Origin: Candidatus Cloacimonadales bacterium
GTDB taxonomy: Bacteria; Cloacimonadota; Cloacimonadia; Cloacimonadales; JAIOQZ01
Direction of reading: 5' to 3'
NCBI GenBank assembly: GCA_963665815.1
Contig: OY762463.1
Coordinates: 1,792,001 to 1,856,000 of the forward strand
Length of the DNA: 64,000 bases
Below the pieces are notes generated by a model. It saw only the letters and a program-made list of their open reading frames with translations. It was not told the origin of the DNA and searched no databases. A program made the translations under genes and the position numbers. Of this stretch, positions 13,973-53,344 are shown one piece after another. How positions within the stretch are numbered: the stretch's first letter is position 1; every line of letters begins with the position of its first letter.

Positions 13973-15035
13973 TATTTGTGTTTTCATAAGAACCCTTAAT
14001 ATTGGAGGAGCTGAAAGGCAAAGCATGTATCTTGTAGATATGCTCTCCAAATACTACAATACTTATCTTCTGGTTTTCCATGGAGAATTTGTTGATGATT
14101 CCTTTTTGGATTTTACAAAGAAAAATAACATCCGGCTTGTCAGACTTTCAGGTAATACAATACAGAAAATTGGGAAATTGTATCTGTTCTTCAGAAAGAA
14201 AAATATTGATATTGTTTTTGGATATCTTACTTTGAATAATGTTCTGGGGGGAATTTTCGGACGTCTCGCCGGAGTTAAATACATTATTGGTGGAGCTCGG
14301 GGAAGTGAAATTGAGAGATATAAAACTTCAATGTGCAAGTTCATTCATAATTATGTATCCAACTATACAATATTCAATAGTAATGCTGGAAGAAAAGTCT
14401 TTGAAGACTTCGGATTCAATCCTGACAAATCCGTTGTAATAAATAATTGCTTTTATCTGGATGAATTACCTCGAGAAAATGTAATCAAGGATAAACCGAT
14501 TATTATATCTGTTGGAAGATTTGAAGATGTCAAGGATTATATAACTGCCATCAATACAGCACATATTCTAAAAAATAAGTACAATCTTGATTTTGAATAT
14601 AGAATATGCGGCTATGGAAAAAATGAAATTGCCATCAGAAACCAGATCGAACTGATGAATCTACAGAACTGCATAACTGTTCACATTAAACCTGACAACT
14701 TAATGGAGCTTTACAGAACTTCCAACATTTACCTTTCAACATCATTGTTTGAAGGATTTTCAAATTCAATAATGGAGGCTCTGAGTTGTTCTCTGCCAGT
14801 TGTTTGCACTGAAGTCGGAGATAACAAATTGCTTGTAAAGAATGACAGTAACGGCTTCAGGCACAATGTTGGTGATGCAGAGTCACTAGCTGAATCAATA
14901 TACAAAATCTCTTCTGATTCAAAAATGCTGGAGAAAATGGGACATAACAGTTACACTCTTTTAAGAGATAATTATACCGAAGAACCTTTTTTGAGAAAAT
15001 ATCTGGAATTGATTTCCAGACTTATTTCTTCCTGA
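13953..15035 (+). CDS. Glycosyltransferase family 4
   Basis: IGGAERQ, VGRF...KD, EGFSNSIMEA, VGDN. Overlaps the end of the upstream gene. Confidence 0.9.
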   Translation: MSSNKPDICVFIRTLNIGGAERQSMYLVDMLSKYYNTYLLVFHGEFVDDSFLDFTKKNNIRLVRLSGNTIQKIGKLYLFFRKKNIDIVFGYLTLNNVLGGIFGRLAGVKYIIGGARGSEIERYKTSMCKFIHNYVSNYTIFNSNAGRKVFEDFGFNPDKSVVINNCFYLDELPRENVIKDKPIIISVGRFEDVKDYITAINTAHILKNKYNLDFEYRICGYGKNEIAIRNQIELMNLQNCITVHIKPDNLMELYRTSNIYLSTSLFEGFSNSIMEALSCSLPVVCTEVGDNKLLVKNDSNGFRHNVGDAESLAESIYKISSDSKMLEKMGHNSYTLLRDNYTEEPFLRKYLELISRLISS

Positions 15036-16566
15036 TTTTACGTCCTATAAATTCCTTAAACTGTTTCCTTTCCCATCCTCTTAATCCTATAAAATAGTAA
15101 GTAATGAGATACAATCCACATGATAATGAAAGATGAAGCAATAGCTGAATGAAACTTTTAGGTTGATGCAGCATTGAAATACTCCAGGTTACAGCAGCAA
15201 TCAAAACACCAACTATAAGTGTTTTTAATACGGCCTGATTAATAAAATCTTTCAGCTTGATTTCTGCAAATCTACATGCTTTTGGAATGTTGTATACAAC
15301 AGCAAAAATTACATTAGGAATGATTGTACCAAGAGCAACACCAATAATTCCAATTTTGTTAATCAACAGAATACTTATTCCCAGATTTGCCAGACACTCC
15401 AGAACTGCAATTAAAGTAAGCTCTCTATGAACATTGCCCATCAATAGGATATATACCGATGAACTTCTCAGGAAAACCAGAATATACATAGATACAAGCA
15501 AAATCAGAGCACAGATATATCCCTGTTCTGCTCCCGGATTTGTATTCATTTCAAGCCATATATCGAGTAGTGGACGTACATAGATTATCAAAGGTATCAA
15601 GAACATTGTAGAAATAAATCCAAGCAGTCTGTTAGATTCAATAAGAATCTTACCCAGCTTAGATGTCTGATTTGAGGCAAACAAAGTGGCTGCTATAGGA
15701 CTTAGATTGTCCAGAAATTGAGAAGAGAATGATCGAAATGTTTCTGCCAGCCGTGATGCAATCTGATACACAGAGACCAATGCAACGGATGCAAAAATTG
15801 AGATAACCATCTGGTCTGTCCTGAAAATTATCAGGTTCGTGAATGTAATGATATAGGCGAATATAGAGAACTCCATCACCTTTTTTATACCTTTAATATC
15901 GTAATACCGAATACCTATCCTTAGCTTCGGCATCTTTCTGAAACAGAAAAAGCCCATTATAATGTTTCTGGCAAAGCTGGTTGACAATGTGATTATTGTA
16001 ATTACTTTCAGCTTATATCCAAAATGAAATGCTGTTAAAATAAGCACAAAATTAAGTATCATGAAAGTAAGCTGTATATAGTTTCTCAGCTTTATCTCGT
16101 GTAATCCCCTCAAGATCTCTGTAACGAAACCCGTAGGAAACACTATTGCTGTACCAATTCCAAACATTAGAAATACTGACTTGTAATATTCAATGTCTGT
16201 ACCTTCCTGAAACTTGAAAAGATCGCCAAGATAGAAAGAGAGTACATAAGTAGCTATTACAATTAATATGGCTAATCCGGAATAGTTAAAGAAAACAGTA
16301 GTAATAAGTCTGTTATATGATTCCCAGTCCTGAGTTGCAATATTTTCACTTGTGGATTTCTGGATTGCAGCCCCAAATCCAAAGTCAAGCAGCAGAGAAT
16401 AACCAAATATTGTCCAGAGTAAAGCCCAGAAGCCATAGCTTTCCGGAGAAAGTCCCATGAAAAGGACTCTGGTAAGAAATATCGTCATTACCATACCAAT
16501 TACGAGCTTTCCATAATTGGAAATCGTATTGGCAATCATTTTAGCTCTGAGGCCAGTACTGCTCAT
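15022..16566 (-). CDS. wzx: Polysaccharide flippase (Wzx / MOP superfamily)
   Basis: About 14 transmembrane segments; YGFWAL, LLDFGF, RTDQMVI, GIIGVALGT. Confidence 0.85.
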   Translation of the reverse strand: MSSTGLRAKMIANTISNYGKLVIGMVMTIFLTRVLFMGLSPESYGFWALLWTIFGYSLLLDFGFGAAIQKSTSENIATQDWESYNRLITTVFFNYSGLAILIVIATYVLSFYLGDLFKFQEGTDIEYYKSVFLMFGIGTAIVFPTGFVTEILRGLHEIKLRNYIQLTFMILNFVLILTAFHFGYKLKVITIITLSTSFARNIIMGFFCFRKMPKLRIGIRYYDIKGIKKVMEFSIFAYIITFTNLIIFRTDQMVISIFASVALVSVYQIASRLAETFRSFSSQFLDNLSPIAATLFASNQTSKLGKILIESNRLLGFISTMFLIPLIIYVRPLLDIWLEMNTNPGAEQGYICALILLVSMYILVFLRSSSVYILLMGNVHRELTLIAVLECLANLGISILLINKIGIIGVALGTIIPNVIFAVVYNIPKACRFAEIKLKDFINQAVLKTLIVGVLIAAVTWSISMLHQPKSFIQLLLHLSLSCGLYLITYYFIGLRGWERKQFKEFIGRKIRKK

Positions 16567-17370
16567 CTATTGTTTCTCAGTCTGTTTTGGTCTTCTCACA
16601 TTCTTTGAACTGAATATCTTGAAGTCAACAACTCTGGCATATTTGTTTTCCAGTTTTCTCTTGTTTTTATCAAGAACAACCTGTTCTCCATGTATATACA
16701 TTTTGAGACGATTTCTCTTAACACCTTTATTGACAAGATATTCTATAACACTGTCAGCTCTTCTTTTGGAAAGATCAATATTGTATTCTTTATCTCCCAT
16801 TTCATCTGCATATCCATGAATCTCCAGAAAATATTCCTTATTCTCATTCATAATGACAGCAACTTCTTCGAGTTTTGGCTGCTCTGATTTTTTAATGTTA
16901 TCTTTATCCAAATCAAAGAAAACTACAGGAAGAATCATTGCTACACTGCGTTCGATGATTTCACGTTCAACGATAATCTGCGGTTCCTGAACAAAATCAA
17001 GTGAATCATTATCCTGACTCTGTCTTTCCCACGGTTGATATTGTCGTTTTGGTTTTACATTCATGTATATAGTCATAGATTTGGCAACCGGTGGAACAGG
17101 AAGATAAATATTCTGCGGATACTGATTGGGGTAAATCGGTTCTGCAACGATATTTATTTCTTTCTTCTCTCCCCAACTGACATTAGTCTGAATTGGTGAT
17201 GTTCCGTAGTATACACCATCAATAAAAATCTTTGCTTTTGTCGGGTGAGTATTAATCTTGATATACCCATTATCCATACCAGGAGGCACCGGATGCTTAG
17301 TATATGTAACACAGGAAATCAAACTTAACAACATTCCTGTTAAAACTAATAATTTTGAAAATCTTTTCAT
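16567..17370 (-). CDS. PEGA + OmpA C-terminal domain lipoprotein
   Basis: Lipobox LISC; PEGA INTHPTKAKIFIDGVYYGTSP; OmpA-C VFFDLDK...IHGYADEMG...YNIDLSKRRADSVIEYL. Confidence 0.88.
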   Translation of the reverse strand: MKRFSKLLVLTGMLLSLISCVTYTKHPVPPGMDNGYIKINTHPTKAKIFIDGVYYGTSPIQTNVSWGEKKEINIVAEPIYPNQYPQNIYLPVPPVAKSMTIYMNVKPKRQYQPWERQSQDNDSLDFVQEPQIIVEREIIERSVAMILPVVFFDLDKDNIKKSEQPKLEEVAVIMNENKEYFLEIHGYADEMGDKEYNIDLSKRRADSVIEYLVNKGVKRNRLKMYIHGEQVVLDKNKRKLENKYARVVDFKIFSSKNVRRPKQTEKQ

Positions 17371-19471: not shown

Positions 19472-19878
19472 TTTCTGAGCAACTCTCTCAAATATTCCTG
19501 GATATGCATATCAGGTAGAATATCTATTCCGGCAAAGGATTTCAGAGAATACAGTATCAGGAATGCAACCAGAATTAAACTGATTAGAATACCAAGATAC
19601 ATTAAAAGCTGGAATACGAGAGTAATAGCTCTCTGACCGGCAGTGGCTTTTCCGACTCTGCTTTTCCTTCTCTGATCAACACCGATAATCCACACGAAAT
19701 ACAATCTCTTTATGAACCAGAATGTGAATCTGATATCAAAATATTTCTTTCCCAATGATGATGGAGAGAGTCTTCTCAGAACAGCTTTAATCTCTTTCTT
19801 CTGTTCATAATTTAAGCTTTCCTGTATTGTAGGATTGATCATATTGAACAGATAGTCTTCATCTCTTCTTTTAGCCAT
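19468..19878 (-). CDS. Small membrane protein of unknown function
   Basis: ATG at 19878 after GAGG overlaps the upstream stop. C-terminal hydrophobic helix; overlaps both neighbouring genes. Confidence 0.7.
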   Translation of the reverse strand: MAKRRDEDYLFNMINPTIQESLNYEQKKEIKAVLRRLSPSSLGKKYFDIRFTFWFIKRLYFVWIIGVDQRRKSRVGKATAGQRAITLVFQLLMYLGILISLILVAFLILYSLKSFAGIDILPDMHIQEYLRELLRK

Positions 19879-24317: not shown

Positions 24318-24457
24318 AATTTCCTTAAATCCTTAACTTATTGTATTTAATCCAATTACAATACATATTTTAAAATCAAAAAAATATCATCTTATTAATT
24401 ACTTATCTCACTATATGTCAAGATATTTAACACTACCAACTGATTATTAATTTATAA

Positions 24458-33840: not shown

Positions 33841-34419
33841 TTACTCCGAATCCTGATGTTCAAACTCATTTTTAAGTATTGAAAACAGATAAACATCGAA
33901 AAACTCTCTTCTGGATTCATGATACCCAAAGTCTCTTAGTCTGCCTTCCTTAGTAAAGTTTAGCTTCTCAAGCAGTTTGAATGATGGCAGATTACCCGGG
34001 CGAACAAGAGCCTGTATACGATGAAGTCCCATATCCTCAAAACCAAAACGAATTACTTCTGAAAGAACTTCAGTCATGATGCCTTTATTCCAGAATTCAC
34101 GCTTCAGATCATAGCCAATTTCGGCAATGGAGTTTTTAACAAATTTCCCGAAAAGGCATGTTCCTATCATCCTGCCGGTTAACTTATCAGCAACAGCCCA
34201 TCTCAGATATTCCTGTTTAGAATACTGTTCATCGAAAAAGCGGATTATAATCTTTGCAATATCCGGAGTTCCCGGACCATCCCAGTCCAGAAACTGAATA
34301 ACTTCCGGAGAATTATATAACTCACTGAAATCTTCAGAATCTGTCTCATTTATCTTTCTTAAAACACATCTTTCAGTTTTAAGAATAGGAAAATTCATAA
34401 AAGCTTTTTGTACGCTCAA
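33841..34419 (-). CDS. GNAT N-acetyltransferase (RimJ/RimL-like)
   Basis: LKTERCVLR, AEIGYDL...WNKGIMTE, LHRIQA...N..S.KLLEKLNF..EG.LR. Confidence 0.9.
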   Translation of the reverse strand: MSVQKAFMNFPILKTERCVLRKINETDSEDFSELYNSPEVIQFLDWDGPGTPDIAKIIIRFFDEQYSKQEYLRWAVADKLTGRMIGTCLFGKFVKNSIAEIGYDLKREFWNKGIMTEVLSEVIRFGFEDMGLHRIQALVRPGNLPSFKLLEKLNFTKEGRLRDFGYHESRREFFDVYLFSILKNEFEHQDSE

Positions 34420-34442: not shown

Positions 34443-35450
34443 CTAATACCCTGCAGGATTCTTTACCTGCCAGTTCCACATATCTACACACATTTTATCT
34501 ATACTGTATTTTGCTTTCCAATTCATTTTGTTTAACGCTTTTTCCGGATCTGCATAAGAAGTAGCAATATCTCCGGATCTTCTTTCGGTAACTTTGTAAG
34601 GAACTGCTTTTCCAGTAGCCTTTTCAAATTCCTTTATAATCTGTAAAACGGAGTAACCTGCACCTGTTCCAAGGTTGATAATTTCCAGTCCGCATTCTTT
34701 CTTAAGAAGATCTAATGCCGAAATATGTCCATCCACAAGATCAAGAATATGAATGTAGTCTCTGACTCCTGTTCCATCCGGTGTATCATAATCATCACCA
34801 AACACTGACAGCATTTCTCTTTTACCTATCAGCACCTGAACAATAAACGGGAACAGATTATTAGGTTTACCATTAGGATCTTCTCCAATTAATCCTGATT
34901 CATGTGCTCCAACCGGGTTAAAATATCTGAGCAATACGATATTCCAGTTATTCTCAGCTTTGTACAAATCCTGCATAATATGTTCTACCATAAGCTTAGA
35001 CTGTCCATAAGGATTTGTTGGTCCAAGGTCAGCTTTTTCTGTAAGCGGAATCTCACTTGGCTCACCGTAAACAGTTGCAGAAGAACTGAATATAATATTT
35101 CGTACGTCATTCTCATTCATTACTTCAAGTAGATTCAATGTACCGGTAACATTGTTTTCGTAGTACATCAATGGTTTTTCCACAGATTCCCCTACAGCCT
35201 TCAAGCCAGCAAAGTGAATTGTTCCGAAGATATCGTTTTCCTTGAATATCTTTCTGAGAATCTCCTTATCTCTAATATCGCCTTCGTAGAATTTAACATT
35301 CTTTCCGGTGATTTTCTTTATTCTATCAAACACAACAGGATTACTGTTACTATAGTTATCTATTACAACAGGTTCATAACCCTGATTTAACAATTCAACA
35401 CATGTATGACTTCCAATAAAACCGGCTCCCCCGGTCACTAATATTTTCAT
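34443..35450 (-). CDS. galE: UDP-glucose 4-epimerase
   Basis: HFAGLKAVGES, FSSSATVYG, NPYGQSK, LRYFNPVGAHESGLIGEDP, DGTGVRDYIH. Confidence 0.96.
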   Translation of the reverse strand: MKILVTGGAGFIGSHTCVELLNQGYEPVVIDNYSNSNPVVFDRIKKITGKNVKFYEGDIRDKEILRKIFKENDIFGTIHFAGLKAVGESVEKPLMYYENNVTGTLNLLEVMNENDVRNIIFSSSATVYGEPSEIPLTEKADLGPTNPYGQSKLMVEHIMQDLYKAENNWNIVLLRYFNPVGAHESGLIGEDPNGKPNNLFPFIVQVLIGKREMLSVFGDDYDTPDGTGVRDYIHILDLVDGHISALDLLKKECGLEIINLGTGAGYSVLQIIKEFEKATGKAVPYKVTERRSGDIATSYADPEKALNKMNWKAKYSIDKMCVDMWNWQVKNPAGY

Positions 35451-38019: not shown

Positions 38020-38349
38020 TTAAAACGCTTCAAGAGCAGATTCTACATCATCAAATACATCAAATATTTTGTAAGCTCTGGTAATTTCGAATACCATACG
38101 AGGTTTAGCCTGTAATTTAGCTATGTATATATCCCCATTCAATTCAGAAACATATTTCAGGCAGGCTACAATCGCTCCAAGCCCTGTACTGTCAATAAAT
38201 TCAAGTTTACCAAGATCAAAAACAAAATTCCTGCTTTTACTCAGATAATCCTGAAAATGATCTTTCAGAACTTTCGAGTTAGATGCATCCAGTCTTCCCT
38301 CAAGACTTACGATGCCGGCACCCTTTCTTATTTCAAACGAGATATTCAT
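38020..38349 (-). CDS. STAS-domain anti-sigma-factor antagonist (SpoIIAA/RsbV/SypA-like)
   Basis: LEGRLDA, DLGKLEFIDSTGLGAIV, VFEITR. Confidence 0.92.
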   Translation of the reverse strand: MNISFEIRKGAGIVSLEGRLDASNSKVLKDHFQDYLSKSRNFVFDLGKLEFIDSTGLGAIVACLKYVSELNGDIYIAKLQAKPRMVFEITRAYKIFDVFDDVESALEAF

Positions 38350-39314
38350 TTTTCCTCCAGATTACTCTTTTGTTTGTACCAGAGAGTAAATCTTCTAATT
38401 CCTTCTTCAAAACTTGTTGTGGGTTTATAATTTAGTTTATTCTCTGCCTTTGTAATATCGGCATAAGTAATATCAACATCACCAGGCTGCATTTCCATAT
38501 ATTTCTTTTTGGCTTTAATTCCAAGACTATCTTCAATTGTTTGAATCATTTCTGTTAGTTTAACCGGGCTGTTATTACCCAGATTGATAACATCATAAGA
38601 GCATTTCGATCTGTTATACTCAACAGCACTTGTTATTCCTGAAACAATATCTTCAATAAACGTATAATCACGGCTGGTAGAGCCATCACCAAATACTGTA
38701 ATTTCTTTCCCTGAAGAAATAAGATCAGTGAATTTATGAATAGCCAAATCAGGTCTCTGACGAGGTCCATAGACTGTAAAGAATCTTAATATTGTAGAAG
38801 AAACACCATAGAGATGATAATAATTATGAATTATCAATTCGCAAGCTTTCTTTGTCGATGCATAAGGTGATATTGGAAAGTCCACATTATCTGACTCGGA
38901 GAAAGGTATTTTTTTATTATTTCCATAGATAGATGATGTAGAAGCAAAAATAAGATTCTTCACATCATACTTTTTCATTACTTCAAGAATTTTGATCGTA
39001 CCATTAATGTTTACGTCAGCATAGTATTCCGGATTCTCAATAGAAGGTCTCACCCCAGCCATTCCAGCGAGATGAATCACAATATCAATCCTGTTATCAC
39101 TAAAAATTCTGTTTAGAAAATCACTGTCTCTTATATCTCCTTCACACAGTGTAAAATTACCATCATTCAGTATATTCTTTATATTATTCCTTTTGATCTC
39201 AGGATTATAATAATTACAAAAATTATCAAGGCAGAAGATCTGATTCTCTTTTATTAGCGATTCGCAAAGATTTGATCCTATGAATCCGGCTCCACCTGTT
39301 ACTAAAATTTTCAT
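38346..39314 (-). CDS. NAD-dependent epimerase, UDP-glucuronate 4-epimerase-like
   Basis: HLAGMAGVRPS, PISPYASTKK, LRFFTVYGPRQRPDLAIHKF, QPGDV..TYADI. Confidence 0.85.
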   Translation of the reverse strand: MKILVTGGAGFIGSNLCESLIKENQIFCLDNFCNYYNPEIKRNNIKNILNDGNFTLCEGDIRDSDFLNRIFSDNRIDIVIHLAGMAGVRPSIENPEYYADVNINGTIKILEVMKKYDVKNLIFASTSSIYGNNKKIPFSESDNVDFPISPYASTKKACELIIHNYYHLYGVSSTILRFFTVYGPRQRPDLAIHKFTDLISSGKEITVFGDGSTSRDYTFIEDIVSGITSAVEYNRSKCSYDVINLGNNSPVKLTEMIQTIEDSLGIKAKKKYMEMQPGDVDITYADITKAENKLNYKPTTSFEEGIRRFTLWYKQKSNLEEK

Positions 39315-39324: not shown

Positions 39325-40044
39325 TTAATATGCGCCCTTTCCTGTTATGACCGCAGGAATAGTATTGAGAAGAATTTTGAGATCTTCCCAGAGGCTCTGA
39401 CTCTTTATGTATTTTTTATCCAGTTCGACCTGTTGATCAAATGGAATTTCGCTTCTTCCGCTTACCTGCCAGATGCAGGTGATTCCAGGTTTAACATGAA
39501 GTCTTTTTCTGTCTTCAAGAGAATATTCGGCAACTTCTCTCGGGATTGGAGGTCTTGGACCAACAAGACTCATGTCACCAATAAACACATTGTACAATTG
39601 AGGTAACTCATCAATACTGAATCGTCTGATAACTCGACCGACTTTTGTAATTCTGGGATCCTTCTTCATCTTGAAGATGACACCTGCTTGAGATTCATTC
39701 TGATTAAGTAATTTGTCTTTAAACTTATCCGCATTCATTATCATAGACCTGAACTTATAAAAATCAAAGTGTTTACCATTGAGTCCAACTCTCTTCTGTG
39801 TGTAAAATACAGGACCCGGATCCTCTAGTTTTATCAAAATTGCAGTAATGAAGAATACCGGAGACAAAACAACCATTCCCAAAACTGACAGAACAACATC
39901 AATCAATCTCTTCAATCCATAAGAAAACTTGATTGTCAGTTCCCAGAGTATCAGTTTTCTGAGATGTCTTGTTTTTCTTTCTTCAATATTGCTGTCATCA
40001 AGCTGATTAATTATTTTCCGACGAAAATCTTTATCTACTGCCAT
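39325..40044 (-). CDS. Priming sugar transferase (undecaprenyl-phosphate phosphoglycosyl transferase)
   Basis: KRLID, YKFRSM, DPRITKVG, IDELPQL, MSLVGPRP, KPGITCIWQVSGRS. Confidence 0.95.
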   Translation of the reverse strand: MAVDKDFRRKIINQLDDSNIEERKTRHLRKLILWELTIKFSYGLKRLIDVVLSVLGMVVLSPVFFITAILIKLEDPGPVFYTQKRVGLNGKHFDFYKFRSMIMNADKFKDKLLNQNESQAGVIFKMKKDPRITKVGRVIRRFSIDELPQLYNVFIGDMSLVGPRPPIPREVAEYSLEDRKRLHVKPGITCIWQVSGRSEIPFDQQVELDKKYIKSQSLWEDLKILLNTIPAVITGKGAY

Positions 40045-41371
40045 CTCTGCCTCTCATTCTGTGCTTCCAGTCAAGGACTCTGAGCAAAAATAACGGATTT
40101 CCGATAATGTATCTACGCCACATTCTTCCCGGTTCTTTATACAATCTGTAACTCCATTCCATACCTATTTCTCTGAGCCACCTTGGTGCTCTTTCTATTC
40201 TTTCCGAATAAAAATCGAACAAACCGCCAACTCCAAGAACTACATTTGCATTTATCTTGTCTCTGTAATCATTAATCCACTTTTCCTGTAATGGTGCCCC
40301 AAATGCAACAAACAGGATTTCAGCTTTACTTTCGTTTATCGCTGTAACAATTTCTCTACTGTGAGATCTGTCAAAATAGCCGTCTGCTGTTCCGCAGATG
40401 TTAAGTCCAGGAAAATCTGATTCGAGCTTCCGCTTCATCTGGTCTGCAACTCCGGGTTTTCCTCCGAGAAGATAAATTCTGTAGCTGTTTTCAATTGCCA
40501 GATCTCTGATATACGGAAACATATCTGTACCATTGATGTTCTCCTTTAAAGGAGTGCCCAGCATCTTGCAGGCAATATGAACACCAATACCATCGGGATA
40601 CACAATATCGTTATTCTTGATAATACTGTAGTAATCTTTATCAGAATACATTTTGTTAAAACAATCAGGATTAACATAATAGATTGTAATTTTTTTATCT
40701 GTCTTCACAGCTTTATCAATATCTTCAACAGCCTGATTCATAGTTTTATTATCAAAATCAATTCCAATCAGATTCACTTTCTGTTCAAATTCAGAATTTC
40801 CTCCAGAGTACAACAATGCAGGTAGTCCTTTAAGAAGAAGCATCAGGTCATACACAGGATTCCTTTTGTAAGTGAATTCCCATTCCGTGTTAAATCTGCC
40901 TTCATAAGCTGTTCTACTCGCCTGCCGTATAAACCACAAACTGATTAATCCGGGATTACTATCAAGAAGGTAAGATTCTCCCAATTGTCTTTCTTCACTG
41001 GAATATTCTCTAATACTAACTCCAACAAGATCAATTTCACCTGTCAAAACATAGTATATAAGACTTAATTTATTCAGTTTATCATTAACAATGTTATAGT
41101 ACTTCACTTTAAGTGGTTTTCCATGTATGCCAAACACTGTTTTTTCAGTAAACACGGATTTTCCTGTTAACGATTCTCTTAAATATAATAATACTAAAAT
41201 TACTGCGTTCACAGGAAGAAAAATGAAAAACAGACCTATTGAAATGAGATAACTGATCAGACCATAAACAAATTTAATCAGCATTGATTCAATAACATAA
41301 GCAGATTTTCTGGATTTCCCCTTCAATCTGTTTTCAAGCTTATTTATCTGTCTCAGTTTTCTTTTATCCAT
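40031..41371 (-). CDS. WecB/TagA/CpsF (GT26) glycosyltransferase with an N-terminal degenerate sugar-transferase domain
   Basis: C-terminal PDGIG, NGTD, LLGG, G.PLQEKW, GVGGLFDF, RAP.W....MEW.YRL..EP.R..RRY; N-terminal VLTGEIDLVG...PGLISLW. Confidence 0.9.
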   Translation of the reverse strand: MDKRKLRQINKLENRLKGKSRKSAYVIESMLIKFVYGLISYLISIGLFFIFLPVNAVILVLLYLRESLTGKSVFTEKTVFGIHGKPLKVKYYNIVNDKLNKLSLIYYVLTGEIDLVGVSIREYSSEERQLGESYLLDSNPGLISLWFIRQASRTAYEGRFNTEWEFTYKRNPVYDLMLLLKGLPALLYSGGNSEFEQKVNLIGIDFDNKTMNQAVEDIDKAVKTDKKITIYYVNPDCFNKMYSDKDYYSIIKNNDIVYPDGIGVHIACKMLGTPLKENINGTDMFPYIRDLAIENSYRIYLLGGKPGVADQMKRKLESDFPGLNICGTADGYFDRSHSREIVTAINESKAEILFVAFGAPLQEKWINDYRDKINANVVLGVGGLFDFYSERIERAPRWLREIGMEWSYRLYKEPGRMWRRYIIGNPLFLLRVLDWKHRMRGRDGSR

Positions 41372-41383
41372 TCGTCAAACCTG

Positions 41384-42496
41384 TTAAATCATAAAACAAT
41401 TCATTATTCTTTGTGCATGAGCTTTCCAACTGAAATTCTGCACACGTTCTAAACCTTTTTCTATCAAAATCTTCCTCTGATCTTCGTCCGACAATAACTT
41501 CATGATACTGTCTCGTATTGATTCAGGATCTGCTGGATCAAAAATTTCTACAGCATCACCACCGACTTCTACAAGAGATGGCGTATCTGAGCATGCTACA
41601 GGAGTTCCACAAGCCATGGCTTCCAGCATTGGGATCCCAAAACCTTCGAAATATGACGGAAAAGCATACAATGATGCTGATTTGTATATCTCCGGTAGTA
41701 GTTCTCCGTCTACAAAACCAGGAAATATCATCGAATCCCTGTCATCCGAATTGCTGTGATAATCTGTTACTGCATCGCTGCCAGACCAGAGTTTACCGGG
41801 CATTATCAGCTTGTATTCCTTCTTTATATTATCAGGAAGCATCTCAAATGCTTTCATAAGATTAAGATGGTTTTTTCCAGGATGCTCAATTCTGGCAATA
41901 TACAGAATATATTTTCCTTTATAAATTTCAGGCAACTCTCTCCCTGAAGTATATTCACTGTTAAATCGCCTGTCATCATATCCGTTATAATTCAGAACAA
42001 TCTCAGTTTTCGGAGTTCGAAAAAACTGCATGATGTCGTTCTTAGTACTTTCACTGATTGCACACTTATAATCCGCTTTCCTGAGAAAGTGAGGTATTAT
42101 ATGTCTGATATAGAACATTCTGAAAACATCATATTTACCATCAATATGGAACTGAGAAAGATCATGCACTGTGGCAACGGTCCTGACAGGATACCTGCAC
42201 AAAAGTCTTCTGTTCCCCGCCGGTAGAAATATACCGTCATACTTTCCTAATCTGAAACAAAATGGGACAGCAAAAAGATGCCATGCCATATTTAACACAG
42301 GTTTTTCCAGACAATTCGGCACAAGAATAAACCTGAGATTCTTATGTCTTACAGGGAATGCTTTCAGATCTTTCTTCAGCAGCATTAAATCAATAGATGC
42401 ATGTTCCAGTAATTCTCTGACCGAGTTTATGATATAGTCAGAAATCCCTGATTGACCACTATCAAACGCCATTCCACTAACAAATAGTTTTATCAT
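41384..42496 (-). CDS. Glycosyltransferase family 4
   Basis: TVHDL, ARIEHPGKN, FPSYFEGFGIPMLEAMACG. Confidence 0.93.
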   Translation of the reverse strand: MIKLFVSGMAFDSGQSGISDYIINSVRELLEHASIDLMLLKKDLKAFPVRHKNLRFILVPNCLEKPVLNMAWHLFAVPFCFRLGKYDGIFLPAGNRRLLCRYPVRTVATVHDLSQFHIDGKYDVFRMFYIRHIIPHFLRKADYKCAISESTKNDIMQFFRTPKTEIVLNYNGYDDRRFNSEYTSGRELPEIYKGKYILYIARIEHPGKNHLNLMKAFEMLPDNIKKEYKLIMPGKLWSGSDAVTDYHSNSDDRDSMIFPGFVDGELLPEIYKSASLYAFPSYFEGFGIPMLEAMACGTPVACSDTPSLVEVGGDAVEIFDPADPESIRDSIMKLLSDEDQRKILIEKGLERVQNFSWKAHAQRIMNCFMI

Positions 42497-43644
42497 GAAT
42501 CATCTCCCTGCAGAAGACTTTCAATTCTCTGCACATTTTCTGTGTTATCAAATTTTTTCTTGAAGAACTTCAGAGCTTTTTTACCCATAATCTTTGATTT
42601 ATCCGGAGCAAGTACAAGTTGATGTAAAAAACCGGCAAATGCCAGAAGATTACCTTCCTGAACAAGGAATCCATTCTCTTCATGATACAGCCACTCATCA
42701 ATGCCACCGATGTCAAATGCGATAACAGGTTTCCCATGTGAAAATGCTTCAGGTCCTATCATTCCGAATGGTTCCTGCCATCGTACCGGAACAACAACAG
42801 CGTCACATTTATTATAATAATCATTAACATTATCTACCCACCCGGTAAATGTAACATGCTCTTCAATACCGAATTTTCTTACAAGAAAATCCAGATATTC
42901 TCTGTCATTACCGTCTCCTGTAATAGTTAGATGGAATGGATATATCAGCATTGCTGCAATTTCCATAAGCTGATCTACCCCCTTACCTCTTATCAACTGC
43001 CCTACATAGAGAAGCTCTAGCTTATCATTCTTTTTATACTCAGGTTCAGGAGCTTTATCAATTATGGGATAGACTTTATGGATTTTCTGATCAGCAAATC
43101 CGTTTTCAATCAGATTCTTTCGCATATAATCCGAAAGCACAACGATTTTATCGCTTTTTTTCAGTGTCTGCATAAATGTCTCAAACTTATGAGGATTCAA
43201 GAACTTGACTGGAAAGCTTTGGCCTGTCTTCTGTATCAGACATGAACATAGCGAACAATATTGCTTATTGAATTTCCTGTTACAATTGATTCTTTTGTAG
43301 GGATAGTATTTGTGCTTTCTCATACAGTAGAAATCATGATCGTGTACAGTTAAAACCGTTCTGTAATTCTCCTGCATCATTTCTAGTAGATTCTGACTTG
43401 TTATCTTGTGAATATATGCAACATCAATATCACCAAACAATTCCTTTACTTGTTCAATTGTATGATTGTTATAGATATAACACTTCTCAAATATCTGCTC
43501 AAATTCCTTTTCATTGTCCGGCATTTTTTCAAAAAACCCGAACAATTTATGTCCCTGCTCCTTCAAAAGAAGCCCGACTTTGTATATATACTTTTCAACT
43601 CCGCCTTTAAAGCCAAAATGCGTATTCACAATTAAAATATTCAT
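42493..43644 (-). CDS. Glycosyltransferase family 4
   Basis: GGVEKY, GQLIRGKG, EPFGMIGPEA; Cys-rich insert (HD..C...C.....C..C). Confidence 0.92.
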   Translation of the reverse strand: MNILIVNTHFGFKGGVEKYIYKVGLLLKEQGHKLFGFFEKMPDNEKEFEQIFEKCYIYNNHTIEQVKELFGDIDVAYIHKITSQNLLEMMQENYRTVLTVHDHDFYCMRKHKYYPYKRINCNRKFNKQYCSLCSCLIQKTGQSFPVKFLNPHKFETFMQTLKKSDKIVVLSDYMRKNLIENGFADQKIHKVYPIIDKAPEPEYKKNDKLELLYVGQLIRGKGVDQLMEIAAMLIYPFHLTITGDGNDREYLDFLVRKFGIEEHVTFTGWVDNVNDYYNKCDAVVVPVRWQEPFGMIGPEAFSHGKPVIAFDIGGIDEWLYHEENGFLVQEGNLLAFAGFLHQLVLAPDKSKIMGKKALKFFKKKFDNTENVQRIESLLQGDDS

Positions 43645-43934
43645 AATCTTTTTTCTCTACAGTTTACACTGTCATCAATGCTGATAATCAGTGCGTTGTT
43701 AATATTCTGCTGTTTCATTGTAATCAACAGTTCCGTATCATGGATAGGACATGCCCTGATCTTATTATATATTAAAACAATCAGTTCATCATCAACTGAA
43801 AAACACAATGAGTTATTTATTGGTCTCAGTTCCCTGATTCCATTTTCACAAATCCCTGAAAAGCAATCAATCCTGAGCTCTTCAGTATTTGTGCTCGAAA
43901 TTACATTGAGAATCTTTTTCTTATACTTTTCCAT
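43641..43934 (-). CDS. Hypothetical protein (97 aa)
   Basis: Fills the gap between two glycosyltransferase genes (6-nt gap upstream, 4-nt overlap downstream); no motif recognised. Confidence 0.55.
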   Translation of the reverse strand: MEKYKKKILNVISSTNTEELRIDCFSGICENGIRELRPINNSLCFSVDDELIVLIYNKIRACPIHDTELLITMKQQNINNALIISIDDSVNCREKRL

Positions 43935-43940
43935 GAAATT

Positions 43941-46280
43941 TTACTTCATCATTACTTTTTCATAAACATCTTCATATAAACCAATTAAATATTTATATGT
44001 ATATTTCTGTCTCACAAGCTTTTCACCTTCTGCTGCAAGGGCAGAGAGTTTATCTCTGTCAGTATATGCTTTGAGCATTTTCTCCGAACACATTTCAACA
44101 TTCTCAGAATCAAAAAGATATCCGTTTTTACCTTCAACAACAAGGTTGGGATCAACGACATTGCTTTGAATAACCGGAGTTCCACTAATCCAGCTTTCAA
44201 CAACAACAGCACCCGAATTCATGAACCTGACAGGAATAACATGAACATCTGAATACCTGAGCCAGCTCAACACTTCCCAGCGATCAACCATTCCGGTGAA
44301 AATCACGCGTTCATCCAGATTATGCTCACCGACAAGCCTTTTCATCTCTTCAAAAAGTTGAGGTTCATAGTCTGCTCTTCCTACGAAAACATACATTGAA
44401 TCCGGAATCTCGTTCGCAATTTTTATAAAGGCTTTAAGTCCTATCATCTGTCCCTTGATCTCTGATACCCGTCCCAGAGAAAGGAAGACAAATTTATCAT
44501 CATTAATTTTTTTAATCTTTCTTATGTTATCTACTTCAACCTCATATTCATTCAAAAGAATAGGTACAGGCGAATAAGACACATTTGGATTAAACTGTTT
44601 GAAAAATCTGATTTCTTTATCTGCAATTGCGAATATGTGATCATACCCGTGCAGAAACATTTTTTCTCTGTGTTTTATATTATAAGAGCTCAAAACATCC
44701 GGATTAATTTTACCTGTTTCTTTTATTATACCTGCATAATCAAGAAAATCGAAAGAACAGAGAATTACTGGCATATTGAACAGCTTTCCTATGATAAATG
44801 CCAGCATATTGTTATAGCTTATTGCCGGGAAGCACTGGATTACATCATAACGTTCATTAATCAGATGCCAGATGATTGTCGGGCAAAGAGTTTTTGTTTT
44901 GATATTTGGCAATTTCACAAACGGATTGAACAGATCATATAACCTTTTTACAATAAATCCGTTTTCAATCTCAGTCTTTTCTCTGTCTATTCTATGAGGA
45001 CAGATTACTGTTACTTCGTTATTCTTTGCCAGTTCTATTGCCTGATAGTGGATATTTGTTTCAGCTCCGCCGACTTCCGGATAAAATCTGTTTGTCAGTA
45101 TTGCTATTTTTTTTCTTGTTTTTACGGTTTTCAAAAACTCAATAAAAGATTTTCCTACATTATCTGAAAAATAGAGCTTCATCGTTTTTGCATAAAGTCT
45201 TTGTCCAATCTCAGAAAGCTTCTCCGGTTCTGCATGAAGCCTTTTAATTTCTTCACACATTTTCTCTGCAGAATCCCGAATTACTACTTCAGACTCATCA
45301 AGTTCCAGCCCTTCAATACCAATTGTAGTCGTTAAAACTGCTTTTTTCAGCATACCGGCTTCAAGAATTCGTGTTCTTGTTCCGGAAGCAACCCGTAATG
45401 GCAAAAGCACTGATAATGCATTATGAATCTCTGACTCAATATCATCAACTTCACCAATAATATCAATATTATCATAGTCCTTATAATCGGAATAAAGTTT
45501 TGATTCCTCTTTACCAACAATCCTGATCCGTATATCATTTTCAATCAGCCATTCCTTCAGGGCAGGATACATGTTATTCACAAAATTCATAAAAGCATCT
45601 TCATTAGCGGCAGAACTCAATGTACCAAAGAACAAGATGTATTTTTCATTATTCAAAGAAAATGTATCTCTGTCAACACGGCCAATTGCATTTGGCAGAA
45701 TTTGATAATGCAGTTCAGGACGTTTCGCATAGTCCAAAACCATATCTCTTTCAACCGAATTAGAAAAAAAGAAATAATATGGTCTTGAGAAGAATTTCTT
45801 CTCGAAAGCTTTTAACTTAAGATACTCTATGAAGAAATATCTGTTTTTAAGAGTTTTACATTTATTCCATGAAAGCTCAGCAATTCTTGAAAAAAGCATG
45901 TCCACATCAATGATGATTTTTGAGTTTGGAGATATATATTCAGCTATCCTTGCCAGCTTTGCCATTGAGCTGAATCGAAATACAATCAGATCGTATTTAC
46001 TGGATTGCAGTATGCGCTTCCATTTTCGAATCTGCTCATTAGTAAATTTATATACCGCTGTAGTTTCCCATAAGTTCGTATCCATTTGTGTACCCATGGA
46101 ATAACAGTTTTCATAGCCGCTATGTTTATGTACTTTAGAGAAAATGTATCTCCATGATCTGACGAGAAACAAATCACAGTCATATTCCTTATTGAGAGTA
46201 TTCCATAAGAATCTGCTACGGTTTTTATCTCCACCTTTTTCATTGGCAAACGGAGTATCTACATAAAGCACTTTCTTCAT
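43941..46280 (-). CDS. Tandem double GT4 glycosyltransferase fusion
   Basis: First GT-B unit (GGDKNR...SGTRTRILEA...TTIGIEGL) and second GT-B unit (RFYPEVGGAE...LGRVSEIKG...GAVVVES). Confidence 0.88.
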   Translation of the reverse strand: MKKVLYVDTPFANEKGGDKNRSRFLWNTLNKEYDCDLFLVRSWRYIFSKVHKHSGYENCYSMGTQMDTNLWETTAVYKFTNEQIRKWKRILQSSKYDLIVFRFSSMAKLARIAEYISPNSKIIIDVDMLFSRIAELSWNKCKTLKNRYFFIEYLKLKAFEKKFFSRPYYFFFSNSVERDMVLDYAKRPELHYQILPNAIGRVDRDTFSLNNEKYILFFGTLSSAANEDAFMNFVNNMYPALKEWLIENDIRIRIVGKEESKLYSDYKDYDNIDIIGEVDDIESEIHNALSVLLPLRVASGTRTRILEAGMLKKAVLTTTIGIEGLELDESEVVIRDSAEKMCEEIKRLHAEPEKLSEIGQRLYAKTMKLYFSDNVGKSFIEFLKTVKTRKKIAILTNRFYPEVGGAETNIHYQAIELAKNNEVTVICPHRIDREKTEIENGFIVKRLYDLFNPFVKLPNIKTKTLCPTIIWHLINERYDVIQCFPAISYNNMLAFIIGKLFNMPVILCSFDFLDYAGIIKETGKINPDVLSSYNIKHREKMFLHGYDHIFAIADKEIRFFKQFNPNVSYSPVPILLNEYEVEVDNIRKIKKINDDKFVFLSLGRVSEIKGQMIGLKAFIKIANEIPDSMYVFVGRADYEPQLFEEMKRLVGEHNLDERVIFTGMVDRWEVLSWLRYSDVHVIPVRFMNSGAVVVESWISGTPVIQSNVVDPNLVVEGKNGYLFDSENVEMCSEKMLKAYTDRDKLSALAAEGEKLVRQKYTYKYLIGLYEDVYEKVMMK

Positions 46281-47122
46281 CGCTTAATTCCTTTGGAATA
46301 ATCACTTATACCTCTATTCACAGCATATTTCTGAACGAGTCTGTAAATAAAAGACTGACATATTAAATGATATTCATTTCGTTTTGCAATCCAGATAACA
46401 TCTCTCAAAAACTCCATAATGAATGGTTTCAGGAAAAATCTGATCAAAGACGGTTTGAATCCATATATTTTACCTTCTGCCACACCTTCCCCATGGAATC
46501 TTTTATATACCTGTGGAATAGTGTAATTATGAGAATGTTCTACAATTGCTTCCGGGACATACACAAGAGTATATCCTTTGTTTTTCATTCTGTAAGACCA
46601 CTCTATATCTTCGGAGTACTGTATGTCAGGATCAAAGGGATGTTCCTGAATCATAGATTTTTTGACTGCACTGGTTGCAAGTGAAAAGAAATGATGCCAG
46701 TTCTTAGATTCTCTTCCGTCTCCAAATGCTCTCACCATGTCTTTTATCACAAGAGAATGAGCGTCAGGTCTATAAATCTGATTTCCGAATACAGCCGCAA
46801 CTTTTGCATTTAAAAGAGGCTTTATAAGGTTTTTCAACCAGTTTCTGTCCTGCGGAATGCAATCAGAATTGTTAAACACAATAATATCACCATTCGCTCT
46901 GGCAACAGCTTCATTTAATACTCTGCCCGGAATATAGTCTGACGATTTTATCTGATATGCATTATCTGCATTATACTTCCGAATTACTTCCCAGGTACCA
47001 TCTCTGGATCCTGAATCAACATTGAGAATCTCAAACTCATCATAATCCTGTTCCAGCAGCATTTTCATTGTTGTTTCAATATATTCAATATCGTTAAACG
47101 ATCTTACAATAATTGTTACCAT
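46277..47122 (-). CDS. Glycosyltransferase family 2 (rhamnosyltransferase-like)
   Basis: VDSGSRDGT, FNNSDC, SEDIEW, VEHSH. Confidence 0.9.
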   Translation of the reverse strand: MVTIIVRSFNDIEYIETTMKMLLEQDYDEFEILNVDSGSRDGTWEVIRKYNADNAYQIKSSDYIPGRVLNEAVARANGDIIVFNNSDCIPQDRNWLKNLIKPLLNAKVAAVFGNQIYRPDAHSLVIKDMVRAFGDGRESKNWHHFFSLATSAVKKSMIQEHPFDPDIQYSEDIEWSYRMKNKGYTLVYVPEAIVEHSHNYTIPQVYKRFHGEGVAEGKIYGFKPSLIRFFLKPFIMEFLRDVIWIAKRNEYHLICQSFIYRLVQKYAVNRGISDYSKGIKR

Positions 47123-47124
47123 GT

Positions 47125-49050: not shown

Positions 49051-49058
49051 CGTATCTC

Positions 49059-50267: not shown

Positions 50268-50373
50268 TTTTGCTCCGTATACTTAGCATGATAAATTCAA
50301 AAGTAAGCTTTGATTATTTCGCACGTAAAATTCAGTAAATTCCGAGTAATGCAAAATTCTTACCATGTTAATA

Positions 50374-51690: not shown

Positions 51691-53266
51691 TGTTCAGTAC
51701 TTTCCTTTTTATTCTCTTCAGCAGTTCAGGATAAAAATCCAGATACTCATCAATTTTCTCTATCTCAAAATTATTTGAACATTCAATAATTCGACTTCCA
51801 TATTCCTTCAGATAACCTACTGAATGGATATCCCCAAGCTCCTGTATTGATTCACCGAACTCGAGTATAGTTGATATCGGATGAGATTTCTTTATCTCTT
51901 CCCACACTGGAAACAACTCTATATCAAGCGAAGCCAGAACAATATCTGAAACCGGATAACTGGCAATTTCTTCAAAACTTACAAGTTCTTTAGCTTTGAC
52001 TTCAACCGTTTCATTAACAAAATTCCTGCAATACTCTTCATCGGAGTCCATTTTGATTGGAATATCAAAAAGCTGCACCTCAAAACATGATCCATTATCT
52101 AATTCGCTTGTGAGGAATATTTCCCCATTCAGCATTTCCAGCAGTCTCTTCGTGATTGCCAGACCAAGCCCGGTGCCACCGTATTTCCTGTTGCTCTGCC
52201 CTTCATTCTGAAGAAATGACTCAAAAATTCTTTCCTGCTGATCCAACCTGATACCAATTCCACTGTCTTCAATTGCAATTTTCAGATCCGCATGGCAATC
52301 TACATCATCTATAATCTCTGCTTTAGCTTCAATTCGAATAAAACCGGTTTCTGTAAATTTAATAGCATTTCCAATAATGTTAAACAAAACCTGACGCAAT
52401 CTTACTTCATCGGTATACAACTGACCCGGGAAATTTTCATCCACAGAAATACTAAACTCTAATCCTTTTTCAGCGATTTTAACAGAAAAAATGCTTTTAA
52501 TTTCCTCAAACATCTTGTAGGAATCAAAATAATCATTCTCAATAACCATTTTCCCTGCTTCAATTTTTGACAAATCCAGTATATCATTAATCAGCTTAAG
52601 CAGATTCTTCCCACCAAGAAGAATAGAATCGACATAGCTTTTCTGTTGTGGATCAGATATCATGGCAGCAAGAAGTTCTGTAAAACCAATTACAGAGTTC
52701 AATGGTGTTCTTATTTCATGACTCATATTTGCCAGAAATTCGCTTTTAGCCTTATTGGCAAAAACAGCCGATTCTCTTGCTGTCTCAAGTTCCTTTACGG
52801 CATCCATCAATTCTTCTTCTATTGATAGTCTTTCATTGACGTCCTTTCTGATATTCTGTAGTTCTGTTTCCTTCTGAAGTAAATTCTTCTTCATCTTTTT
52901 TAACTCAGTGTTCTTCTTACATATCAGGAATGCCGTTTCTAATCCTGATTTCAGATCAGATTTCGTAAAATCCTTCTTCAAAAATATTGCATTTTCTTTA
53001 AGATCCATTGGTGCATGACCAATATTCTCTGAGAATATAACAAGAGGAACATTCGAAGGAAATATGTATTTTGATGTTATATCCAGAAGTACACTAAGGT
53101 TATCATCATTTTCCATAAAAACAGCATATAATTCTGACAATTCACTCTCAGGGATATTACGTACTTCCCAGAGGTTCTCGGTATTGAAATAAATATAGTT
53201 ACTGTAATCTTCTGCAAGTCTTCTGAATATCTCTTCATCTGTTACAATCAGAATTTTGTTTTTCAT
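51680..53266 (-). CDS. Cytoplasmic sensor histidine kinase with an N-terminal pseudo-receiver
   Basis: H-box FLANMSHEIRTPLN, N-box RLRQVLFNIIGNAIKFT, DSGIG, YGGTGLGL; no TM helix. Start may be 53266 or 53281. Confidence 0.92.
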   Translation of the reverse strand: MKNKILIVTDEEIFRRLAEDYSNYIYFNTENLWEVRNIPESELSELYAVFMENDDNLSVLLDITSKYIFPSNVPLVIFSENIGHAPMDLKENAIFLKKDFTKSDLKSGLETAFLICKKNTELKKMKKNLLQKETELQNIRKDVNERLSIEEELMDAVKELETARESAVFANKAKSEFLANMSHEIRTPLNSVIGFTELLAAMISDPQQKSYVDSILLGGKNLLKLINDILDLSKIEAGKMVIENDYFDSYKMFEEIKSIFSVKIAEKGLEFSISVDENFPGQLYTDEVRLRQVLFNIIGNAIKFTETGFIRIEAKAEIIDDVDCHADLKIAIEDSGIGIRLDQQERIFESFLQNEGQSNRKYGGTGLGLAITKRLLEMLNGEIFLTSELDNGSCFEVQLFDIPIKMDSDEEYCRNFVNETVEVKAKELVSFEEIASYPVSDIVLASLDIELFPVWEEIKKSHPISTILEFGESIQELGDIHSVGYLKEYGSRIIECSNNFEIEKIDEYLDFYPELLKRIKRKVLNSEE

Positions 53267-53314
53267 ACTTTCTCTCGCCAATTGATAATTTCATCGTAAA
53301 TATACACTATTACC

Positions 53315-53344
53315 AGTATACATTGTTTTTACATGCACTGTCAA
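53315..53344 (-). promoter_or_regulatory. Candidate sigma70-type promoter heading the long minus-strand operon
   Basis: TTGACA-18 nt-TATACT on the minus strand, 35-50 nt upstream of the kinase start. Confidence 0.6.

Follow-up and report, generated by a model that had tools for sequence, protein, structure and literature searches.

Wzx/Wzy-type systems, such as those responsible for the group 1 capsule and colanic acid of Escherichia coli and for the exopolysaccharide (EPS) of Myxococcus, combine a priming transferase and glycosyltransferases (GTs) with a Wzx flippase, a Wzy polymerase, a polysaccharide co-polymerase (PCP) and Wza. It is known from chemistry that bacterial surface polysaccharides can bear amino-acid and N-acyl-aminoacyl substituents, but to our knowledge few of the enzymes that add them have been described. 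Two other envelope systems employ aminoacyl chemistry: DltABCD catalyzes the D-alanylation of teichoic acids, and AlmEFG places glycine on the lipid A of Vibrio. In the pathway of mycobacterial glycopeptidolipid biosynthesis, the peptide made by the Mps nonribosomal peptide synthetase (NRPS) is lipid-primed, reductively released and then glycosylated with single sugars, and the thioesterase (TE) of Pks13 transfers an acyl chain to trehalose. A full-text literature search, in which supplements were not included, revealed no earlier account of a Wzx/Wzy locus containing a multimodular NRPS. Here, we describe such an arrangement in a 64,000-nucleotide stretch of DNA (hereafter the window; bases 1792001-1856000 of contig OY762463.1, assembly GCA_963665815.1) from a Candidatus Cloacimonadales bacterium, whose genome is one 3.96-Mb contig of ~35% GC and 98.7% completeness. 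Cloacimonadales are abundant, uncultured members of anaerobic communities.

The best reading of the minus-strand run between positions 53281 and 15022, judged by gene families and gene order, is a Wzx/Wzy-type EPS operon that is conserved across Cloacimonadales and would be controlled by cyclic di-GMP (c-di-GMP) and by partner-switching (STAS, SpoIIE/RsbW) proteins. We tentatively propose, giving it a little less than an even chance, that the NRPS gene within this run and the adjacent GNAT gene constitute an optional aminoacyl or peptidyl decoration module of this EPS family. Gene families were assigned with Pfam and NCBIfam (E 1e-5 for the 25 proteins of the run, E 0.01 for the unknowns), and these scans confirmed the signalling genes, glycosyltransferases, priming transferase, epimerases, galE, GNAT, wza and ompA listed in a preliminary description of the window made from the sequence. 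The locus shares with the described systems the priming transferase, GTs, Wzx-like and Wzy-like proteins, PCP and Wza; among the hallmarks of a Wzx/Wzy pathway, the priming transferase, a PCP and Wza are encoded. It differs from them in that the PCP lacks a recognizable tyrosine kinase, most NCBIfam matches lie below cut-off, STAS and SpoIIE/RsbW proteins are built in (joined in relatives by PRK-like and PF01663 proteins), and the NRPS is an addition. The exosortase family PF09721 (EpsH/XrtA) has no match in the genome, and the XrtA-associated NCBIfam matches all fall below cut-off.

The NRPS is tightly embedded. The run comprises 25 open reading frames (ORFs) of at least 100 aa, slightly fewer than the approximately 27 genes of the preliminary description, which was right about their co-orientation and close spacing: the 24 junctions consist of nine overlaps, one zero gap, ten gaps of 2-23 nt, one of 55 nt and larger gaps of 106 nt (between the GGDEF and HD-GYP response regulators), 296 nt (double GT4 to GT4a) and 140 nt (NRPS to wzz-like). 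Domain scans and coordinates agree with a 9.4-kb three-module NRPS gene and a GNAT gene 2 nt away from it; the gaps upstream of the NRPS are 14, 23 and 2 nt, and the 140-nt gap downstream contains, as had been noted, no terminator-like site. A promoter-like site matching 9 of 12 positions lies within this spacer at 24439..24410. Co-transcription of the NRPS with the EPS genes would fit this spacing. The promoter named earlier for the run, TTGACA-18-TATACT, is indeed found on the minus strand and matches at 11 of 12 positions, but proves nothing by itself because such sites are as common in shuffled sequences (56 in the region against 47.6 +/- 8.1 in shuffles, i.e. no enrichment). An assembly artefact that fused an NRPS contig to an EPS locus, an alternative raised in the preliminary description, is scarcely credible because G001, a genome of the same genus from a separate assembly, has the identical order throughout on a 488-kb contig, with the whole run syntenic, its proteins 69-97% identical and the NRPS 82% identical over 3126 aa; the genome of the window itself is, moreover, a single contig.

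The NRPS is the only one in the genome. It consists of three modules, yet has five carrier (T) domains, in the order A-T-C-A-T-T-T-C-A-T-TE, where A and C stand for adenylation and condensation domains. Domains were assigned with Pfam, and they show the catalytic motif patterns that we take to be diagnostic (HHxxxDG, GG(H/N)S and the core A-domain motifs): the C domains carry HHIITDG at residue 747 and HHIVLDG at 1968, the core motifs of the A domains are present, and the carrier motifs begin at residues 560, 1612, 1695, 1776 and 2820, in each case with the serine three residues on. The triple carrier (residues ~1587-1830) reflects a local triplication of DNA with spacings of 243 and 249 nt, the second and third copies being 80% and 66% identical to the first; it is found in both species of the genus, and a single carrier occupies this place in the other seven family members checked. 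No flanking direct or inverted repeats were found around the GalE-GNAT-NRPS block; the triplicated carrier is the only strong repeat there. A Sfp-type phosphopantetheinyl transferase (PPTase; PF01648 match in a 225-aa frame) is encoded at ~1.053 Mb of the genome, ~740 kb from the NRPS, and is 35% identical to the PPTase beside the NRPS of another Cloacimonadota genome, G137; MbtH had no match in a search of the whole genome.

Specificity codes, read by anchoring on conserved motifs at positions that we assume to follow the GrsA numbering, are DAWFYGLVIK for A1, DLENIGTIIK for A2 and DILQLGMVWK for A3. The A1 pocket is presumably hydrophobic. The A3 code is one position off DILQLGMIWK, which an excerpt of PMC12283262 reports for Gly domains, and the A3 substrate would be glycine. 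The family form of the A2 code, DLEDIGTIIK, coincides at seven of the ten positions, Glu239 and Asp278 included, with the Arg consensus in the same excerpt, and since these two residues are common to the Arg, Lys and Orn codes (excerpts of PMC12283262 and PMC3207962), A2 likely accepts a basic, arginine-like residue. Domain order, motifs and A-domain codes support the earlier view of a three-module enzyme making a tripeptide. Comparison with solved structures did not discriminate among substrates, given that each of the three A domains has LgrA as its top match, and a literature search with the full ten-letter codes found no paper.

The TE domain has an unusual active site: its nucleophile is Cys2956 in the motif GWCFGG, without the serine of a GxSxG motif, and a Cys nucleophile is found in 9/9 members of the NRPS family checked. 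Such a nucleophile is a known minority variant of NRPS TEs, according to an excerpt of PMC11298585. Among solved structures, module 3 is best matched over its full length by AB3403 of Acinetobacter baumannii (ABBFA_003403; C-A-T-TE; PDB 4ZXH/4ZXI; E 2e-184, query residues 4-1153), which is the best TE match as well (E 9e-21) and has the same GGWCFGG nucleophile stretch. AB3403 has been crystallized with glycine bound (PMC10510592, in excerpt) and is described in the excerpt of PMC11298585 as the only structurally characterized Cys-nucleophile NRPS TE besides those forming beta-lactones or lactams. Unlike the NRPS of the window, AB3403 is a free-standing module fed by a separate A domain and carrier, and its pathway is uncharacterized, so that the likeness explains no function; its counterpart here ends a three-module protein inside an EPS operon. 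Structures of the Pks13 TE match the TE of the window at E 6e-14, at the level of the fold family, and provide a precedent for a TE that hands an acyl chain to a sugar; Pks13, however, belongs to the polyketide synthases, uses a Ser nucleophile and acylates a free disaccharide.

With the Dlt and Alm systems, the locus shares adenylation and carrier chemistry on an envelope glycopolymer. The window differs from both by its C domains, three modules, in-line TE and Wzx/Wzy acceptor pathway. The combination of a free A enzyme, a small carrier and a membrane acyltransferase was not found: DltA models match as generic A domains only, and neither an MBOAT (DltB) nor a DltD or AlmG-type acyltransferase was detected among the 25 proteins of the run. 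The mycobacterial glycopeptidolipid pathway resembles the locus in having an NRPS and glycosyltransferases together, and this co-location is what speaks for the suggestion, also made in the preliminary description, that the peptide itself serves as the acceptor of the glycan in a glycopeptide- or glycopeptidolipid-like product. The NRPS of the window, however, starts with an A domain and has no starter C domain, acyl ligase, lipid-loading domain or reductase release domain, and it is accompanied by what appears to be a complete lipid-carrier and polymer export pathway (Bac_transf, Wzx-like, Wzy-like, PCP, Wza) that works without an NRPS in 46 genomes. We therefore found no support for a peptide acceptor and regard it as very improbable. 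Family scans also bore out the earlier statement that the run holds no dedicated exporter, siderophore receptor, MbtH or oxidative tailoring gene; siderophore hydroxylase and chelating-unit genes are likewise absent from the run. In G137, unrelated genes separate the NRPS from fur and feoAB, which are ~4.6 kb or more away.

The EPS locus is widespread. The order GT4x2-GT4-WecG-Bac_transf-STAS-NTP-LbH-unk376-Wzz-Wza-Wzy-like-unknowns-GT4-OmpA-Wzx is kept in eight related genomes (G036, G018, G008, G052, G048, G025, G026 and G050) and in part in G035, and the locus is also present in G020, G137 and G068. At least five families of Cloacimonadales share the gene order of this EPS operon with its STAS and SpoIIE/RsbW proteins, a locus type that seems undescribed. 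PRK/uridine-kinase-like and PF01663 genes are frequent further members of it. The position upstream of wzz is variable, being occupied by a PF01663 gene in G137, G008, G068, G050 and G020 and by a GT4 gene in G025 and G035; in the genus of the window, the GalE-GNAT-NRPS block fills this slot just upstream of the wzz-like gene. The NRPS, the GNAT, GalE and the NAD-dependent epimerase had no match at E 1e-3 in the first ten sets of related loci, including the short wzz contig of G002, a genome from another genus of the same family (f1).

In G002, the NRPS is found in a different position. Contig C53 breaks off within an NRPS that has a GNAT (46% identity) ahead of it; on contig C312, the NRPS thioesterase is followed after 6 nt by SpoIIE/RsbW and GT2 (56% identity); and contig C381 carries the end of the double GT4, then GT4a, GT4b and WecG. 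Because the three contigs together give this order, the NRPS of G002 is read as heading the same EPS operon, at a different slot. The flanking genes in two further genera of the family, g3 and g4 (AcrB 43% identical, the VIT/TPR protein unmatched), are too diverged to reveal an insertion or deletion of the whole operon within f1.

Of the 232 Cloacimonadota genomes searched, 10 have the NRPS family, recognized by a TE identity of at least 41% (G000, G001, G002, G018, G036, G150, G060, G020, G068 and G137), and 56 have the wzz-type EPS locus, among them 10/10 of the NRPS-bearing genomes. Within genus g6, the NRPS and the EPS locus are each found in 1/21 genomes, the same one (G068); genus g32 has the NRPS in 1/24 and the EPS locus in 12/24, with both in G137; and in family f1, both are present in genera g1 and g2 and both are missing from g3 and g4 (five genomes). 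A more distant group of TEs (32-35% identity) is found in seven EPS-positive genomes of family f12 and in G222, in whose family the EPS locus occurs in 0/21 genomes.

Further evidence comes from metagenomes. A scan of metagenome contigs with an alignment of nine TE domains yielded 80 loci, 45 of them with a TE usable for a tree; the flanks of ~33/80 were viewed. Three loci, L064-L066, fall in the Cloacimonadota TE clade and have a convergent GNAT. In five others (L077, L074, L078, L086 and L095; 48-59% GC), an EPS locus of the same type includes a single short NRPS-like A-T-TE gene that adjoins wzx or is located close to it. The order in L077 is PRK-like kinase, Bac_transf-LbH, small STAS-like ORF, RsbW/SpoIIE, PF01663, unknown, GNAT-(C remnant)-A-T-TE, Wzx, GT2 and GT4; L074 and L078 share this plan, and L086 and L095 are partial. 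Identities to the Cloacimonadales loci are 56% for Bac_transf, 37-58% for PF01663, whose homologues adjoin the A-T-TE gene in these loci, 29-36% for Wzx, 35% for GT2 and 32-34% for PRK, and the Wzx-like homologues of L077 and L095 match Polysacc_synt. The Cys motif of the TE is visible in L074, L077, L078 and L086, and the A-T-TE gene of L077 and L074 is fused to an N-terminal GNAT. The A-domain code of these two, DAEDIGAITK (position 278 realigned by hand on a conserved Tyr), agrees at 10/10 positions with the Arg consensus of the PMC12283262 excerpt. One A-T-TE module cannot make a peptide; therefore, the simplest role for it would be to hand over a single aminoacyl group, for which the Dlt and Alm systems provide a working model. 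In an unrelated organism, L110:394-13312 (50% GC) encodes an epimerase and a flavin reductase, followed by an NRPS of 8 kb whose TE is related and by a Wzz/BY-kinase and a PPTase, a further case of NRPS-to-PCP adjacency; in L067, GT2 and GT4 adjoin a PPTase.

These observations suggest a scheme for a decoration module. The NRPS would build a short peptide on its carriers from a hydrophobic residue, a basic (arginine-like) one and then glycine, the N-terminal amine of which may be capped by the GNAT. Acting as a transferase, the Cys TE could pass the acyl chain to the repeat unit while the latter is lipid-linked on the cytoplasmic side and has yet to be flipped by Wzx, with an amino or hydroxyl group of a sugar as the likely nucleophile. 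The enzymes of the single-module loci would transfer arginine or a related residue.

A number of findings weigh against such a tie. The NRPS is absent from 12/12 homologous EPS loci outside f1 in which the stretch upstream of wzz is visible and from 46/56 EPS-positive genomes, so that the polymer must be made without it. NRPS homologues of ~40% identity lie away from the EPS locus in G018, G036, G137, G020 with its metagenome twin L064, and L066; accompanied by a GNAT of its own and in many cases by a PPTase, the remote NRPS has the appearance of an independent secondary-metabolite cassette. Co-occurrence amounts to about three independent contrasts (f1, G068 and G137), which are all concordant and suggestive, but not significant by a sign test, and the G068 bin is 80% complete with 4% contamination. 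In the tree, the EPS-embedded single-module TEs are not nearest to the Cloacimonadota TE clade, both falling in a 37-row group with non-EPS NRPSs; the fused GNAT of L077 and L074 belongs to another Pfam subfamily and had no BLASTP match to the GNAT of the window at E 1e-4. The run holds no dedicated transferase. Finally, the NRPS of G002 has two in-frame stops, a TAG in C1, five codons before HHxxxDG, and a TAA in C2 (L022, i.e. G002:C53, 5234-5236 and 1910-1912), with flanks conserved and in frame, and may be a decaying pseudogene, as seems probable, or contain errors of the bin.

The preliminary description had linked the NRPS to the polysaccharide through a tripeptide placed on a sugar of the repeat unit, and for this link co-occurrence, embedding and the A-T-TE loci give indirect support. 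An integral role did not hold up: because 12/12 outside loci lack the NRPS and homologues sit in unrelated contexts, a pattern that the description itself had named as evidence to the contrary, the NRPS is not integral to the EPS pathway. The same stand-alone copies favor another explanation, in which a self-contained GNAT-NRPS cluster, whose Cys TE releases a free peptide, was captured by the EPS operon in f1; the GNAT would act in peptide tailoring or in self-protection of the producer, and peptide and polymer would obey the same c-di-GMP and partner-switching signals without being joined. The cluster takes the form of NRPS, convergent GNAT and PPTase in G137, of NRPS, GNAT and PPTase with DUF1015 upstream in G020 and L064, and of NRPS, GNAT and PPTase in L066. 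In G018 and G036, the NRPS is found without a GNAT, as two-module A-T-C-A-T-TE proteins beside a C25 peptidase or an RND (resistance-nodulation-division) pump and a GH3 gene, and on a different contig from the EPS locus or ~570 kb apart. The GNAT is convergent in six loci, as a separately expressed immunity or tailoring gene would be, and its PDB relatives include RimJ/RimL-type and antibiotic acetyltransferases; GNAT homologues of 38-50% identity accompany the NRPS in G002, G020, G137, G068 and L064-L066. Embedded and stand-alone copies share their A2 code and TE motif, suggesting that release proceeds by one chemistry in both. We consider a free peptide only slightly less probable than the decoration module; it leaves unexplained the presence of the EPS locus in all ten NRPS genomes, the stay of the cassette at two operon slots in f1 and the A-T-TE(Cys) genes beside wzx that are unable to make a peptide, and no exporter adjoins the NRPS in the window.

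Adjacency could also be meaningless if an old accessory NRPS landed in a rearrangement-prone slot and is being carried along or is decaying. The variability of the slot upstream of wzz and the two stops in G002 are in line with this, as is the rearrangement of the EPS locus of G002 itself, where wzz-wza stands beside unrelated genes. So is the rarity of the NRPS family, only 8 proteins among 5.8 billion reaching a TE identity of at least 44%; the named ones are called Cloacimonetes. Against it, the NRPS is intact in the two species of the genus, both of which keep the triplicated carrier, and the family co-occurs with the EPS locus and recurs across lineages. We consider hitch-hiking improbable, and the evidence leans slightly towards a functional tie of the NRPS with the EPS family over it. 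The recent chance insertion envisaged in the preliminary description is not supported either: judged by its sequences, the NRPS family is old and Cloacimonadota-specific, with long branches and copies that group by family in the tree, and the operon slot in the second genus, the 10/10 co-occurrence and the A-T-TE(Cys) loci likewise speak against it. A contig search with the whole NRPS retrieved only the congener and three unrelated NRPSs. An ancestral link to an efflux pump was considered and rejected: the TetR-HlyD-AcrB-OEP operon directly upstream of the NRPS in G036 is not orthologous to the RND operon of the window, because the two are only 22-28% identical.

Peptidases are found near several NRPS copies (C25 gingipain-like in G018, C11 clostripain-like and M14 in G020, trypsin-PDZ in G002; L018:5290-10869, L021:12033-17166, L022:9661-10818). 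These families presumably cut after Arg or Lys, and their location beside an NRPS predicted to use a basic residue may be a coincidence or a hint of a protease-related peptide.

Table 1. Features of the window, in the order in which the minus-strand run is read.
Feature	Coordinates	Strand	Evidence or remark
Promoter-like TTGACA-18-TATACT	53344..53315	-	upstream of first gene; 11/12 match
Histidine kinase	51680-53281	-	Pfam
Response regulator (RR)-PAS-GGDEF	50374-51690	-	Pfam
RR-HD-GYP	49059-50267	-	Pfam
Fused SpoIIE phosphatase/RsbW-like kinase	47125-49050	-	Pfam
GT block: GT2, double GT4 (779 aa), GT4a, GT4b, WecG/TagA-type GT with N-terminal extension, Bac_transf	39325..47122	-	order kept in relatives
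Small Bac_transf priming phosphoglycosyltransferase	39325-40044	-	PF02397 233 bits; TIGR03025 299.8 bits (cut-off 295.55)
NAD-dependent sugar epimerase/dehydratase	38346..39314	-	within this locus, only in this genus; no match in 10 related EPS loci
STAS anti-sigma antagonist	38020-38349	-	
Nucleotidyltransferase-LbH protein (NTP-LbH)	36605-38008	-	
Unknown conserved 376-aa protein (unk376)	35465-36595	-	
GalE, UDP-glucose 4-epimerase	34443..35450	-	TIGR01179 equivalog, 451.7 bits; first gene of genus-specific insert; no counterpart in related EPS loci
GNAT (Acetyltransf_3, RimJ/RimL-like)	33841..34419	-	NRPS partner, conserved
NRPS, 3126 aa	24458..33838	-	Pfam, whole protein and eight pieces: A-T-C-A-T-T-T-C-A-T-TE
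NRPS domain A1	32315-33730	-	
NRPS domain T1	32048-32230	-	
NRPS domain C1	30668-31999	-	
NRPS domain A2	29159-30604	-	
NRPS, three tandem T domains	28349-29080	-	
NRPS domain C2	27011-28333	-	
NRPS domain A3	25541-26929	-	
NRPS domain T	25271-25453	-	
NRPS domain TE	24461-25186	-	
Spacer NRPS/wzz-like, 140 nt	24318..24457	-	no terminator-like site; weak AU hairpin, fold z -0.85
Wzz/PCP-like, 665 aa	22320-24317	-	two transmembrane (TM) segments
Wza	21273-22304	-	PF02563 68.9 bits and SLBB
Wzy-like protein, 448 aa, 8 TM	19871-21217	-	hydrophobicity and conservation
Unknown	19468-19914	-	
Unknown	18530-19471	-	
GT4c	17367-18533	-	
OmpA-family lipoprotein	16567-17370	-	
Wzx-like flippase, 12 TM	15022-16566	-	weak family matches
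PF01663 phosphodiesterase-type gene	927..2105	-	outside operon; homologues upstream of wzz in related loci

Several components of the pathway are assigned by remote similarity (Table 1). The gene earlier called wzc-like encodes a member of the PCP family by a borderline match (PF02706, 25.3 bits against a cut-off of 25.5; TIGR03007, E 2e-24 and below cut-off), and the kinase part of that name could not be upheld, the P-loop being degenerate. The product earlier termed polymerase/ligase is polytopic, with eight hydrophobic segments, and matches no family at E 0.01; it is the best-conserved protein of the locus, with 49-57% identity in the 11 related loci holding one, and we call it Wzy-like. 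The Wzx-like protein has 12 hydrophobic segments and matches NF041503 (E 1.2e-9; 37.8 bits, cut-off 300) and MatE (E 3.7e-4). Partial Bac_transf-like pieces are fused to other domains in the NTP-LbH protein (36605-38008, C-terminal) and in WecG (40031-41371, N-terminal), and in L077 Bac_transf and LbH are joined in a single 553-aa protein.

Other loci surround the operon. A second small glycan locus on the plus strand (9452-15035), converging on the operon end, encodes an RmlA-like nucleotidyltransferase, a membrane protein weakly resembling Wzy_C/O-antigen ligase, two GT4 enzymes and an epimerase. Upstream of the EPS operon, at a distance of 2.6 kb, is the TetR-regulated RND efflux operon (AcrB, OEP, HlyD; minus strand, 55888-62461), in which a PTPS/QueD-like gene (58246-58671) separates acrB from the gene for the outer-membrane factor. 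The region is also flanked by two large proteins of secreted type, at 2202-4262 (DUF4114 and DUF4842) and 5700-9209 (VIT/VWA-like, CarboxypepD_reg and TPR).

A broader picture, which we consider rather doubtful as a whole, would be that of an undescribed, widespread EPS family (STAS, SpoIIE/RsbW, PRK-like, PF01663) with an optional GNAT and A(Arg-like)-T-TE(Cys) enzyme acylating the repeat unit; in Cloacimonadales, the latter would have grown into a two- or three-module NRPS, giving a polymer with an N-capped di- or tripeptide (hydrophobic-basic-Gly). If the decoration module is real, it would produce the first exopolysaccharide decorated with a peptide from a multimodular NRPS, would provide a testable candidate for the enzymes that add aminoacyl substituents to surface polysaccharides, and would suggest a function for Cys thioesterases of the AB3403 type. 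If, instead, the peptide is free, the locus would represent a secondary-metabolite cassette recruited under the control of an EPS operon, through c-di-GMP and partner switching.

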